Of a stretch of DNA of 64,000 nucleotides, positions 24,242-41,907 are shown piece by piece. This DNA is from Amphiscolops sp. MND2022. Lineage: Eukaryota. The notes under the pieces were generated by a model. The model was not told the DNA's origin and did no database searches. It worked only from the letters and a program-made list of their open reading frames with translations. The position numbers and the translations under genes were made by a program. The stretch is from the NCBI GenBank assembly GCA_964187785.1, contig OZ076409.1, positions 60,514,001-60,578,000 of the forward strand. The letters run 5' to 3'. The first letter of the stretch is position 1. Every line of letters starts with the position of its first letter.

Positions 24242-24262
24242 AGTAGTAGTAGTAGTAATAGT
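24242..24262 (+). repeat. (AGT)n tract 1, 7 units with one AAT variant
   Basis: Read directly from the sequence; left boundary of the element array. Confidence 0.95.
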
Positions 24263-25081
24263 ATTCTCCGCACTGGCGCTTTATAGAACTATTCTCGGCG
24301 CCAGCGATTGTAAAACGCCAGTCAGCAATCATTCTAACCTAAGAAAACGCCAGCTGCCCTTATTTGAATTTCCGCAACTGGTTTCAGCTAAATCTGGCCT
24401 AAGGATCTTTGAAATGTTTTTTTTTTCAGCTTCGCTGGAAAGGTTTTTAGGTTTTTTCACCTTGTTTGCTGTGGTGGCGTTTTATTACCTATTGGCGTTT
24501 TCCACCCCTGTTTCAAAATTTCGAATAGCATGCCCAGGAAAACCGGAATCCTAAAACGGGTGTAACATCATCATCTGGCATGGTGGAAATCATTTTCCGG
24601 AATAACAACAAACACTCTTGGGTATAAGTCTCCCTTCTAAAAGCACTGAAAACACATTTTAAAAAGTTTCCAGTATTTCAGGTCATATTGGATTTCGAAA
24701 AAAAGTATAAGGTGTGAACGATAGTTTCACTGACATACGGGTTGAAAACTTGCGGGGTTATTCTAAGAAAATTGTTGTTGTTGTGGCTGTGACATTTGCA
24801 ACAATCAACATCGATGTTATTTCCTTTTCTACAGATTTGGTAGTTTCTTTTCTTGCTGTCGTTTTAAGGTACCCTTCATTTTTGTTGAAGTAAAACTTTG
24901 GAATTATTGTATATGAAGCTAATCCGGTGCCACTACTCATCGACAGTTTCGATGTGCCTTCATTTTCACACTTCTTCATTTTCATTTCTTTATTGGTCAC
25001 CGATATTTAGATGTCATGATGTTAATATTTTTTTTTGAATTTCAGATTTGTTTTGAAGTCAATCGAGATTACGAGATCTGA

Positions 25082-28000
25082 TGGAGAGAGAATAGAGGCA
25101 GTCGTCTCTATAACAGATGGAGAAACGAGCCAAAAAACTTTTTATCCAGTGACCCCCCAGATTTTCTGGTGAAATCTTCCCTAAGCCCCCACGCTGGCAA
25201 TGGGTTATTCGTAACAAGAGCATTTCAAACAAGAGAGTTTTTAGTGAACTATAGAGGAGATCGTGTGACTGAAGAAGCGTCCACTCTCGTTGATAATGTC
25301 TATGTTTTCGACACTGGACCACCGGAACACGTTCTCATAGATGCTGCTAATTGCAATGATTGCATAGCAAGGTTCATCAACGACTCTGATTCACTTTATA
25401 AAGCGAACTGTCGTCCAGTGAAGTTTCGGGACTCTAACGGCACAGTCAAGATTGCATTTTATTCTACTCGTGAACTGAAAGCACAAGAGGAATTGAGGTA
25501 CGATTATGGCACTGCGGAAGCACCTTGGAAACATACTGTGCCTGAAGAATGTTTCAAAGGGATTGCTGAAAATGATACTTCAGTTGATTTGGATCTCATC
25601 GAATTAAACACTGAGTTTAACTGGACAAATTGTGACATGGAATTTGGAGCCGAAGTTGAAGTAGCCTGTAATAGTGCTGAACCAACTTCCACTTCTCAGA
25701 TTGATACTGTTGCTGAACAAGGTGAAGTTGATGCAGTTTGTGGAAAACTGAATCAATGTAAAAGGAAAGAAAATCCTCATGAACATCTTCAACATTTTTG
25801 TCAACGAACTCTCGAAAATTTGAAAAAAAGTGCAGTTAACGAATTTAGTGAACAAATTACAATTGAAGAGATTCCCCAACAACAACAGGCAATTTCCGAC
25901 AAAGTAATAAACGAAACAGATGACTGTCTTGAAAAATTAATTACAAATTCAAATTACAGTCTTGAGAAGCCAGGTGGAGTTGTCAGCCATGAGCAGTCAA
26001 ATGGAGATATTGTCAGTCGTAAAACGCCAGGTGGAGAAGTTGTCAGTTGCGAGAAGCCCGGTGGAGAAGTTTTCAGTTGTAAAAACCCAGGTGAAGAAGT
26101 TGTTAGTCGCGAGAAGCCAGGTGAAGAAGTTGTATGTCGTGAGAAGCCAGGTGGGGAAGATTTCAGTAATGAGAAGCCAAATGGAGAAGTTGTCAGTCGT
26201 GAGAAGCCAGGTGGAGAACTGAGTCGTGAGAAGCCAGGTGTAGAAGTTGTCTTCCGTGAGAAGTCAGATGAAGTGTACAGTGGTGAAGAGACAGTCCTGA
26301 GAAGCACCAGTGGGGATGTTGAAAGAGGGTTTGATACTTGTGATGAACTTCCTGCAAGAAATGACGATGACAATCATGAATCTGAAGATGAACCTTACAT
26401 TTCATCAAAGGAATCGGAAAGTGCAGACAAAATTAGCTCCAAAAGAAACCGACAACGGCGTGACAAATTAGAAGAATGTATTTTGTGCTTTAAGACAGTA
26501 AACAAAATGAGGGATCATTTGTCAAACACTCATAAACTCCACAACAATTTAATTCTTATAAGGTTTCTGAGTAGCTATTACTCGACTCGAAAAACTAAGA
26601 AATGTTTTCAGTGTGATATCTGTCGGAAGAGAATGTCTTTCAAACATGGGCACCCAAAGAAACACGAATTACACGTCATTAAAAAAAGAGACAATATTGA
26701 ACATTTTCCTGCCGAATTTCGTGAAGCTGTGCTACAGTTTCGAGAACAGTTGTCAACACCCAACGAAGTGCTCGTACGGAAGTTTGTGGACCATCAAGAA
26801 GGCCTCGCTGACGATGGTGACTGTGTCACTGTCCAAAGATTCTCGTCCAGCTTGCAGAAATTCTTGTGCTTGGTCAAACATGAAACTAATGATTTCAAAG
26901 AGACGACAATGTTAGCGCCGTTTGCCAGACAGTATAAAAGTTCACGTGGTCTCTCAAAGGCCAGTACAATTATATATCTGTCGGCCCTGAAGAAGTTCTT
27001 TACGTTTCTTGAGTTACATTGCCAACCAGAATTTGAGTGTTAACCGAATACCTTGGAATAAAGTTCTCGACGAAACGAGGGTACCTTATCAAAAAGGATC
27101 ACGGAGTGAGAAGAGGAGGGTGATGAAGGAGAAGTTTTTGAAAGTTCCTACATTCAAACAAACGAGAGTCCTGTATAAGAAGGTAGTAGCTGAGCTGGAT
27201 AAAGATTTGAAAACGCATGATCTCAAATACAAAGCTCTTATGGTTTTCAATTTTTTTATTCTTTCTTTGAGGGTGAATTGTAGATCAGGGCCTCTTTTGG
27301 ATCTAACGTGGGAAGATGTTGACGAGATAAAACGTGTGGGTCATATTGAGACCAGTCGGCATAAAACAGGCCATATATATGACGTTGCAATCACAATCCA
27401 AGATGACCAGCTGCCTTGGTTGAACCGCATGAGAAAACAGTATACTGATGAGTTCCAAGTTGCCTCGGAGAAAGTCTTCCCTTCATCGACGAATTTAAGA
27501 GAACACAGTGTGGCGCGATTTATGCGCGAAGTTTTCCTGAAGTTTTTCGGCGACGAGATCTCAACAGTACTTGAGAAGGATTTCCACTCAAATTCTCTAA
27601 GAAAAATGTGGGACACCTACGTACACAAAAATCGCGATAAGATTCCGTTAGATCTGCGAGAGATGCATCTACGCCAAACGGGACACAGTGAATATACATC
27701 GCAAAATAACTACATTGTTCCAGGACTAAACCCATCCCTTCAATTATACCAAGATGTCTTGAAGGACAACAGTTCACTCTTTGACAATGACTCAAACGAA
27801 ACAAACACCAGTAACCAAGCCGAAAAAGGAAGCCAACCGAGTTTTCAGCTTTCTGGAAATTCATCTCTTAACGAACACACTCCCAAGCCTTCTCATAGCT
27901 CTTCTATTAAGGAACACACCCCCAAGCCTTCTCAAAAGTCTAGTAATGAATACACTCCCAATAAGAGAATTGGTACCCGTAAAAAAGACAAAATGGCGAA

Positions 28001-39611: not shown

Positions 39612-41736
39612 ATACCCCGTCCGGGCGCTGACGACTCCTGACGGTTTCCCTCAGCGCCCGATGGCCACCTCGCCTCGGAGTCCACAGCGCCCGATTTTCT
39701 GCCCAGGCTAGCTGAGACCGCCTATCGATACCGCAGTTATTGGGGATGCTACAGCATTCCAATACAAGCTCCCAAAAAAATCAGGCCCTTTCAGTTCGGT
39801 CTGAGACAAAAATGCGAGCAAATGTAGTAAGAGTTTCAAAAACCACTACGTGCGGGCGCACACGGCGTTGCGATAACTACGTGCGGGCGGTGACGGAGTT
39901 TTTTAGTTCTGATGTTTTTTAAATAATTTTAACGCTTTTAAATCACTTTTGTATTGATGTTTTGTTGTTTTGGTAAGTTCTAAGGGGTGTCAGACAGTAA
40001 TAATGAGTTTTTGACTATTTTTAGATTGAAAATGGAAGACCTTGGCTTTGACCCTGAATTTGATGAAATCATCAACTCGTTGTCCCAAATCGACCCGTTT
40101 CAAAACCCAATATCCACTCAAGAGGTACTGGTTGATTGTCAAAGTGATGTAGCACAACAAACAAACCCGCCAGAGTCCGAAAAAGTTCTGAAAACAGTAG
40201 TTGAGAACGGCCAAAATGTCAAAAGTGTCAGTTTCGAAGCAAATTCGGGTGAATTCATCCATGAAAACGTTCTCCAGGTGGGCTCCTCTGGTGCCAATCT
40301 GGTCCCAGAGGGCTCCACCTACGACGAGAACATCAAAAATCAACACCCGGATGAAAATAGTTCTCCTGAAATTAATATTGATAACGATTTCTACGATGGA
40401 ATGGTCAAAATCATCATTTGCACATCAGCTGTTTTGAAGATGAGGAACCATATAAACACGGTTCATAGATGTATATATTCTCGTATTTGGACCTACCTTA
40501 TTGTCTAGTACCCCAATCTTGGAGAAAAAGATGTCAGGGACTGTCACAATTGTGTTTTCGGCGCTTTAAAGGCAAAATACACCATGGAAGACTCAAAAGG
40601 ACAAAAAGGTTTTAGACAGTGAGTAGCCATCAGGATTAACAAATATAGCAATAAATGCTATTTGTGAAGCATGTACGGCCTCCCCGAAGTCAACGAAGGC
40701 TGTAGAAAGCTATACTGCGTATTTAAATGAATCAAAAAGCTATGTAAATGAGGCATTTTTGGAGGACACCGTTGATGTTGTTTTTTCTCAAAGTTGGAAA
40801 TATTTCTTTGCAAATCTCCTAGATGACTCCAAAAACCCCTGGAACACCCTGGAACTTGCCACAACAACCCTCGGGACTAACTAGAAGCATAATTTGATAG
40901 CTAGCACCATCTTGAGATACCTCGGGCACCTGAAATGTTTCATTTCCCACTTAACGATTTATCATCCAAATTTTTCCGGACCAAAATGGGCTGGATTGAT
41001 GAAATTCACCAGTTTTACCGCACGGAAACCAATGCAGAACCTAAATACATATCCCCTGTGCCAGAAAAACCACAGAAAAGAGTTATGTACGTCTTATAAA
41101 TGATGGTATTCATGAAATCTTTCCCCAGTAGAAGTCTTTCAATTTTAACGCTACTGCAGTTCGCAAAATATGGAACAAGAACATCCGCAGAATTGAGGAT
41201 GGTCAAATTCCGGTTCGCATGCATCAACAACACCTGGCACAAACCGAACACACCGTATAAACCGCTAAAAAACAGTAAAAAAGACCACATTGACGAAAAA
41301 TTGCAATATTCAACGAAATACAACATTTTGCTAGTGGCTGAACAGGATATTGAGGAGGCTGAGCCTACCGAAAATCAAAATACCAATGTGGGTTACCTCA
41401 AGGGTGAACCTGGGGAGCCCACTGATGCATTAGAGACAGAAAAACAACCTCCAGAAGCCGATAAAGAGTCTGATTAAAGCTCAGAAAATGATCGATTTGC
41501 CGAAAATTTGTCTGTGAGTGACGAACGCCTAGAATGACGTCAAACATGTGCTAAACTTGCTTGTCGTCTTGTGTTTTCTCATAATTGAGCTTTTTATTGA
41601 TGATTGGGTACCCCGTAATAGTTTTTTGTACCTCAAATCTGGAGTTTTGACAAATCAGCCCTGAGCGCCCCGCGTCAGTAGAGCCGCTGCCGTCAGCGCC
41701 TTGCGTCAGTAGAAAAAGCCCTAAGCGCCCCTGCTT
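39612..41736 (+). mobile_element. Element E3: non-autonomous, internally deleted relative of E1/E2
   Basis: GGCGCT at 39624-39629 and AGCGCC at 41724-41729; coding remnants CTSAVLKMRNHINTVH (cf. KMRDHLSNTH), CHNC and ASTILRYLGHLKCFISHL; no SET or YR catalytic motifs seen. Confidence 0.7.
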
Positions 41737-41907
41737 AGTAGTAGTAGTAGTAGTAGTAGTAGTAGTAGTAGTAGTAGTAGTAGTAGTAGTAGTAGTAGTA
41801 GTAGTAGTAGTAGTAGTAGTAGTAGTAGTAGTAGTAGTAGTAGTAGTAGTAGTAGTAGTAGTAGTAGTAGTAGTAGTAGTAGTAGTAGTAGTAGTAGTAG
41901 TAGTAGT
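41737..41907 (+). repeat. (AGT)n tract 4, 57 units, right boundary of the array
   Basis: Read directly from the sequence. Confidence 0.97.

Follow-up and report, generated by a model that had tools for sequence, protein, structure and literature searches.

A 64,000-nucleotide stretch of the genome of Amphiscolops sp. MND2022 (contig OZ076409.1; hereafter the window, to which coordinates refer unless a locus is named) contains four (AGT)n tracts of 5, 27, 340 and 57 units that bound three elements, E1, E2 and E3. The coding sequences of E1 and E2 identify both as transposons of a SET-zinc finger-tyrosine recombinase (YR) type. Read in the GTA phase of the tracts, the element ends mirror one another as GCC-N11-(GTA)n-N11-GGC. 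We propose, with a probability of about 0.7, that these mirrored GCCs at 11 bp are the element-side half-sites of a phage-style attachment (att) site, and that a circle would be excised at a 6-bp GTAGTA core and reinserted into an AGT tract.

Mirrored motifs at six element ends

A preliminary description of the window had placed an inverted hexamer at all six element ends, and had reported none in the flanks outside tracts 1 and 4. All six hexamers are indeed present, GGCGCT at 24275, 29743 and 39624 and A(G/A)CGCC at 29628, 38576 and 41724, and neither outer flank carries a GCC or GGC in register. The spacings given for them also hold, with the right hexamer of E3, which lies 7 bp before the first AGT, fitting an N10 spacer only when counted in phase; the asymmetry seen between N10 on the right and A-N11 on the left, however, disappears in the GTA phase, where the spacer is N11 at both ends. 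When the higher motif density of the last 300 bp is taken into account, a shared register would arise by chance at about 1e-5 for the left ends and about 7e-5 for the right ends, figures that overstate the independence of three related elements. The hexamer does sit at every end, but what is invariant is GCC, found in 28 of 28 arms across the 14 families described below, with A(A/G)CGCC in 18 of the 28. Nor is the end motif single: several further copies lie within 150 bp of each terminus.

The genome-wide test of motif enrichment at AGT boundaries that the preliminary description proposed gives a mixed outcome in raw counts: at right tract ends 90 matches are in phase against 32 for two off-phase registers, but left ends show no enrichment. 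The signal belongs to the elements themselves and not to AGT tracts generally. Reading the pattern backwards was not adopted as the principal control, since that comparison leaves the register uncontrolled.

Matches to a motif pattern were also examined (20 retrieved of 135, of which 100 were listed). Three families among them were rejected: two proved to be the interior of other repeats, and one the terminus of an unrelated repeat that is abundant and randomly flanked. At L210-L215 and many other loci, an abundant unrelated repeat with random flanks ends in A(A/G)CGCC about 10-11 bp from its terminus.

The register in families selected by their recombinase

In the 1.07-Gb genome we scored 150 YR matches among 907 candidates, retrieved 60 of these 150 loci and then 10 more, and used a quick YR tree only to group families. 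The register was tested on 46 loci of one clade (clade A) together with E1 and E2, taking boundaries from the nearest tract alone and ignoring the motif. At 35 of these 48 loci a (GTA)5+ tract, read on the coding strand, flanks the element on one side or both. GGC lies exactly 11 bp from the tract in 26 of 29 left ends, and GCC does likewise in 28 of 32 right ends. A second set took a single copy per YR family for the 13 families in which both ends had been located, and added E3. With elements chosen by their recombinase gene, the register is kept across these 14 families, whose YRs are 26-67% identical; the att-like reading offered in the preliminary description withstands the refuting condition set with it and is supported.

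The spacers had been called unrelated, yet the left and right arms of one family are more alike than arms of different families. Within families, the left/right spacer match is 75 against 61.4 for permuted pairs (p=0.002), and at positions -20 to -15 it is 56 against 44.4 (p=0.0004), shuffle p-values that are optimistic in that the 14 families are related and were chosen for having both ends, a point that also counts against our proposal. Beyond -21, within-family symmetry is no longer above that of permuted pairs (p=0.24). Because the symmetry covers the spacer and positions -20 to -15 but does not reach farther out, the arms are, to judge from these alignments, family-specific imperfect inverted repeats of about 20 bp. 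The wider end motif reads G-n-A-(A/T)-A-n-CGCC-A-G.

The elements range from 2.1 to 14.2 kb. Different families are stacked head-to-tail in one tract, always in one orientation, at L035, L039, L060 and L047 as well as in the window. An abundant repeat starts right after AGT tracts (L151-L170, L001, L070), often preceded by right ends of a second YR clade, and clade-A elements insert in the same tract with both flanks unchanged. At L065 (7677-9765) the repeat after a clade-A YR copy is a 2-kb array of the pentamer ATAGT instead of an AGT tract, and no arm was recognized. The elements may expand their tracts; the supposed empty tracts used for comparison (6-268 units) mostly lie beside second-clade right ends (13 of 20), and the difference in tract length against the other 7 is not significant (p=0.09).

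Core length and element junctions

The preliminary description set an AGT core between the two motifs. The core does lie within the repeat, but it is likely to be GTAGTA, 6 bp long, and not AGT. In 5 of 14 families the base at right position -1 is T against an A in the tract, and all 14 families have C or T at left position +7, against a G in the tract. Because element-specific bases adjoin the repeat at N11, a circle would have 22+3n bp between its GCCs; n=2 gives 11+6+11, and with it the likely 6-bp GTAGTA core. GTAGTA is present at both ends and is a candidate terminal direct repeat, but it is embedded in long tracts, and 6 bp is an inferred length.

One genomic head-to-tail junction speaks for the att-like reading. 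At L191/L192 (about 60511.2 kb, minus strand), the right arm is followed by exactly GTAGTA and then by the first five bases of the left arm; a 13-nt local duplication and a full element come next, and the copy joined in this way to the full element is internally deleted. All 16 head-to-tail junctions caught by our junction script are in phase, a count that includes the duplicated junction. Of 13 mismatches to the tract, 5 affect core position 1; these occur at both left and right ends and include those of E1 and E2 (p=5e-4, a post hoc value for which E1 and E2 are perhaps not independent). This count covers 71 of 78 ends, with 7 dropped for more than two mismatches.

The same 28 bp between GCCs can also be divided as 10+8+10. 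This would describe a loxP-like site with 13-bp arms (GCC plus 10 bp) around an 8-bp W-GTAGTA-Y overlap, in which the core-binding and catalytic domains read GCC and the accessory copies load more recombinase. The 13-8-13 layout is the geometry of Cre and Flp, Cre is among the fold matches of the recombinase, and E3 moves without a left lattice of accessory sites. We nevertheless judge such a site unlikely. If an 8-bp overlap were exchanged, target bases would be expected in it at many ends, whereas the edge bases are constant within families and unlike the target, whose G is found at +7 in 1 of 59 left ends listed; in addition, conservation at -17, -19 and -21 exceeds a 13-bp arm.

A one-way lattice of accessory motifs

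The further motif copies form an ordered array. The density of top-strand CGCC is 21-23 per kb between 20 and 150 bp from the ends and 1.3 per kb inside the elements, and in the opposite orientation there are 1 and 0 copies at the two ends; all terminal motif copies point one way, except the first copy at the left end. Left accessory sites lie 34-37, 50-54 and 83-85 bp from the core in 12, 13 and 12 of 14 families, a clustering above all 20,000 shuffles (p=5e-5, the floor of the test), and the columns between the motifs are 0.30 identical against a background of 0.28. Clustering at the right end is looser (p=7e-4 against rigid shifts). YR sites are typically inverted repeats of 11-13 bp around 6-8 bp (described in PMC3212892); the motif occupies 12-21 bp, which places it at or past the edge of such an arm. 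Because of this position, and because it is common to the accessory sites, the hexamer is possibly a site of the arm type and not of the core type.

An array of this kind might instead serve transcription or chromatin control, as sites for a host factor or for the SET/zinc-finger protein, with the terminal copy lying outside the recombination site. The protein does have a SET domain, and the CpG-containing array near the 5' end is promoter-like. Such control, however, requires neither an exact 11-bp distance, nor a lone inverted copy, nor left/right symmetry, and the array is equally dense at the right end; we regard this explanation as quite improbable. It is very improbable, in our estimate, that the motif is an inherited relic of shared ancestry or of decayed terminal inverted repeats, with no present function. 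All families do come from one YR lineage, GCC is only 3 bp, and an unrelated abundant repeat has a similar end hexamer at a similar distance; yet the motif positions are held within 2-4 bp over 85 bp, the terminal one exactly, while the bases between them are at background, and young identical copies carry the motif.

The recombinase

The protein encoded by these elements has a YR fold and catalytic residues, which agrees with the att-like reading. In E1 and E2, a Pfam scan recovers SET, a repeat region, a zinc finger, a SAM-like domain and YR, with the YR-related matches below curated cut-offs, and no reverse transcriptase match was found in the element open reading frames (ORFs) scanned. The catalytic residues R-K-(N/T)-R-H-Y are kept in E1, E2 and most relatives. 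A predicted model of an intact relative (mean predicted local distance difference test score, pLDDT, 80.7) matches XerH with Z 13.7 and a root-mean-square deviation of 5.0 over 300 aligned residues. This match covers residues about 100-435, as do those to XerA and to integron, Tn1549 and lambda integrases, and Cre is also among the matches; Foldseek returned the same integrase families, none at E 0.001. The core-binding and catalytic (CB-CAT) part thus aligns from residue about 100, with the zinc finger N-terminal of the core-binding domain. At the other end of the protein is a conserved four-helix domain, confidently modeled, for which neither Foldseek nor searches of PDB sequences and the atlas gave a clear match, a negative that carries no information on its function. 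A homologue search of 50%-clusters gave 114 relatives, and tblastn against phages gave no match.

A second clade on GTA and other repeats

A second clade of the same YR lineage has a terminal and subterminal motif of the AACTTGGC type (L078-L090, L221-L236), and its targets are GTA, TAA, TTA and TAGA tracts. In second-clade families with both ends, the spacings are 22+3n, 16+3n and 16+4n on GTA, TAA and TAGA tracts, respectively. Because these series share one in-range value, 28 = 11+6+11, this clade appears to fit the same 11-6-11 geometry, with its motif at the N11 register. In the extended region of L082, CTAT/ATAG tracts are bordered by ends of one second-clade family, arranged in inverted pairs that face each other.

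A proposed mechanism and its weak points

We propose that a YR tetramer would synapse the two element ends, its SAM-like and catalytic domains occupying the spacers of 11 bp, and would cleave where (GTA)2 begins and ends. A circle would be released with a GCC-N11-GTAGTA-N11-GGC junction, and would then recombine with any in-phase (GTA)2 of a tract. The target would need no GCC, only in-phase GTA units, much like a simple attB. The zinc finger would read (G)nA(A/T)AnCGCCAG both beside the core and at the accessory sites, and the sites so bound would build the synapse and set its direction. Assigning the motif to the zinc finger is a guess, from a position in the protein that matches that of an arm-binding domain; the C-terminal four-helix domain is another candidate reader. 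Coding-dead copies of the E3 type would move in trans.

A more ambitious version, which we put forward tentatively and as somewhat short of probable, is that eukaryotic, animal-type transposons have a full att site in the style of lambda and of integrative and conjugative elements (ICEs). The zinc finger would act as the arm-binding domain on a fixed lattice of sites, the 6-bp overlap would tolerate mismatches, with a first-base core mismatch acting like a coupling sequence, and one 11-6-11 chassis would have been retargeted to GTA, TAA, TTA and TAGA repeats.

Several observations weigh against the proposal of element-side half-sites around a GTAGTA core. Among left tract ends genome-wide, 64 of 784 are on register against 165 for two off-phase registers, with one unrelated abundant repeat making up about half (51) of the 100 off-phase matches listed. 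A tract is absent within the retrieved DNA at 13 of the 48 clade-A loci, and 7 of 61 ends are off register, the seven misses being an internal tract, two apparently deleted ends, an in-phase shift (5), shifts (12, 13) and a distant tract. An intact arm-GTAGTA-arm junction has 0 matches in the assembly, for a pattern that misses E3-type ends, and the junctions within tracts are 18-1419 bp long. A second short junction (L068 8778-8810), in which a right arm meets an L020-type left arm over a 2-bp core, is out of phase and was missed by the thresholds of the junction script; damage in both short junctions would fit the removal of intact ones (n=2). In the protein, the HxxR histidine is replaced by Asn or Thr throughout. 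E3 has multiplied with the terminal motif pair kept but not the left lattice. Finally, treating the two clades as having one register depends on a chosen G-N-C anchor, and the right motif of the TAA family is a weak match.

Anatomy of the window

Tract 1, (AGT)5, is the target repeat to the left of E1 (24242..24256, plus strand). The left end of E1 has a putative 6-bp core of inferred length, ATAGTA, whose first base is unlike the repeat (24258..24263, plus strand), an arm made of an 11-bp spacer and inverted GGCGCT (24264..24280, minus strand; hexamer at 24275-24280), and accessory copies with GCC at 24300, 24317 and 24349, 36, 53 and 85 bp from the core (24294..24355, plus strand). The E1 gene (25082..28389, plus strand) encodes SET, repeats, zinc finger, SAM-like core-binding, YR catalytic and C-terminal helical domains, and its frame is broken near 27034-27039. 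At the right end, accessory copies with GCC at 29525, 29543, 29561, 29596 and 29613 (29519..29620, plus strand) precede an arm of AGCGCC and an 11-bp spacer (29628..29644, plus strand).

Tract 2 (29645..29731, plus strand) measures 87 bp from arm to arm, in phase, and holds the right core of E1 (29645-29650) and the left core of E2, again ATAGTA (29726-29731, plus strand). The left ends of E1 and E2 thus share one variant core, 27 pure repeat units apart, which a simple insertion order fails to explain. The left arm of E2, an 11-bp spacer and inverted GGCGCT (29743-29748), occupies 29732..29748 on the minus strand and is followed by accessory copies with GCC at 29766, 29782 and 29815, 34, 50 and 83 bp from the core (29760..29821, plus strand). 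The E2 gene (32075..36248, plus strand) encodes SET, repeats, zinc finger, SAM-like and YR domains, with a frame break near 33925-33976 and the C-terminal domain in a separate piece (35823-36248, plus strand); a second copy of E2, at L062, is a single open frame of 985 amino acids. The right end of E2 (38549..38592, plus strand) has an accessory GCC at 38555 and an arm of AACGCC (38576-38581) and an 11-bp spacer.

Tract 3 (38593..39612, plus strand), 1020 bp from arm to arm and in phase, contains the right core of E2 (38593-38598) and the left core of E3 (39607-39612). The left arm of E3 is an 11-bp spacer and inverted GGCGCT (39613..39629, minus strand; hexamer at 39624-39629). Its gene remnant (39984..41477, plus strand) retains zinc-finger, SAM-like and YR box II pieces; box I and the catalytic Tyr were not recognized in it. 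The stop codons of E3 are common to the other complete copy translated, and about 20 near-identical copies were seen in the genome; E3 is, going by its reading frames, a coding-dead, non-autonomous derivative. In its right arm (41724..41740, plus strand), AGCGCC is followed by a spacer of 11 bp, the final 4 of which already overlap tract 4, (AGT)57 (41737..41907, plus strand); the right core of E3 lies in this tract at 41741-41746. An empty-site search with the right flank of the window found no empty paralogue, only a repeat resembling a long terminal repeat (LTR) that starts about 45 bp beyond tract 4.

The SET domains lie at 25200-25510 and 32190-32490, and most intact families have SET fused to the recombinase. 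On the minus strand of the 3' part of E2 (36800-37700) are short Cys/His-rich ORF pieces, one with a weak zf-SAP30 match (E 0.006). Gypsy-like and BEL/Pao LTR retrotransposon ORFs surround the cluster on the minus strand, at 100-17900, 41950-47500 and 57500-63200.

Comparison with known systems

By description, the closest known system is CryptonV, which the elements here most resemble, and in their proposed working they are like Cryptons. CryptonVs are YR DNA transposons of which some families are inserted specifically in microsatellites (PMC8869645); they were originally described from a cnidarian host (Kapitonov and Jurka 2012, Repbase Reports 12:2034, as cited in PMC8869645), and are only listed in the relevant passages of PMC5753468 and PMC4455052. 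The elements here are likewise DNA transposons that encode a tyrosine recombinase and lie in microsatellites, which are GTA tracts in the window and TAA, TTA and TAGA tracts in other families. The Crypton superfamily as a whole is described as having a single YR gene and terminal direct repeats of 4-6 bp that serve as recombination substrate in a circle model (PMC3212892, PMC13565253, PMC9977147), and an algal member, CryptonF-1_cRei, is described as excising cleanly to leave the target (PMC9977147). In its passage on the subject, a 2026 review gives the mechanism of Crypton transposition as not experimentally shown (PMC13565253). Cryptons are described as lacking terminal inverted repeats (TIRs) and any terminal structure other than the 4-6 bp repeats, and animal CryptonA and CryptonI as lacking terminal repeats and a C-terminal domain (PMC3212892). 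In the elements here there is no classical TIR, but the arms form imperfect inverted repeats some 20 bp long; a fixed accessory lattice, a SET domain, a zinc finger and a C-terminal four-helix domain also differ from the superfamily. Set beside the R-H-R-Y tetrad of Cryptons, the recombinases here retain R, K, R, H and Y but have Asn or Thr for the first His throughout. The four-helix domain, together with the terminal motifs, sets the elements apart from CryptonA and CryptonI, and none of 68 members matched GCR1_C, the mark of CryptonF, at E 0.05.

The elements are thus of a known kind, with an end architecture that we did not find described in the literature searched, although Repbase entries, a 2020 review by Kojima and supplements, which lay outside that search, may record it. 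With these ends a donor site can be defined (about 130 bp of right end, GTAGTA and about 90 bp of left end), a cleavage register and a circle junction can be predicted, and candidates for the reader domain can be named, so that the Crypton circle model can be tested directly. They also allow element boundaries inside microsatellites to be called exactly.

Other eukaryotic YR systems share parts of this design. Nimaviral telomere-repeat YRs are described as C2H2, SAM-like and YR proteins associated with insertion in simple repeats (PMC10871703); they share the domain layout and the simple-repeat insertion seen here, but theirs are large viral genomes and ours are one-gene transposons of 5-14 kb. 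Starships are eukaryotic YR elements for which a circular intermediate, joined at short microhomology, is described as demonstrated (bioRxiv 10.64898/2026.09.21.753150); these are fungal giants with DUF3435 captains, whereas no member of our alignment A1 matched DUF3435 in Pfam.

Integrases of mobile elements offer a parallel to the proposed mechanism. In integrases of the lambda and Tn916 type, an arm-binding domain lies N-terminal of the core-binding domain (PMC8138268), and IntDOT tolerates mismatches in its overlap (PMC2817482), a property that the core-position-1 mismatches here resemble. Lambda Int, Tn916/Tn1549 Int and IntDOT share with our recombinases the YR fold, an extra N-terminal domain, accessory sites near the crossover and a simple target. 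The recombinases here differ in being eukaryotic, in having a zinc finger, of a different fold, as N-terminal domain, and in a sequence identity of 10-15% to these integrases; the same motif serves both beside the core and as accessory site, and the target is a microsatellite. If the lambda/ICE-style reading is true, these elements would provide a minimal defined Crypton donor site and a natural set of microsatellite-specific integrases.

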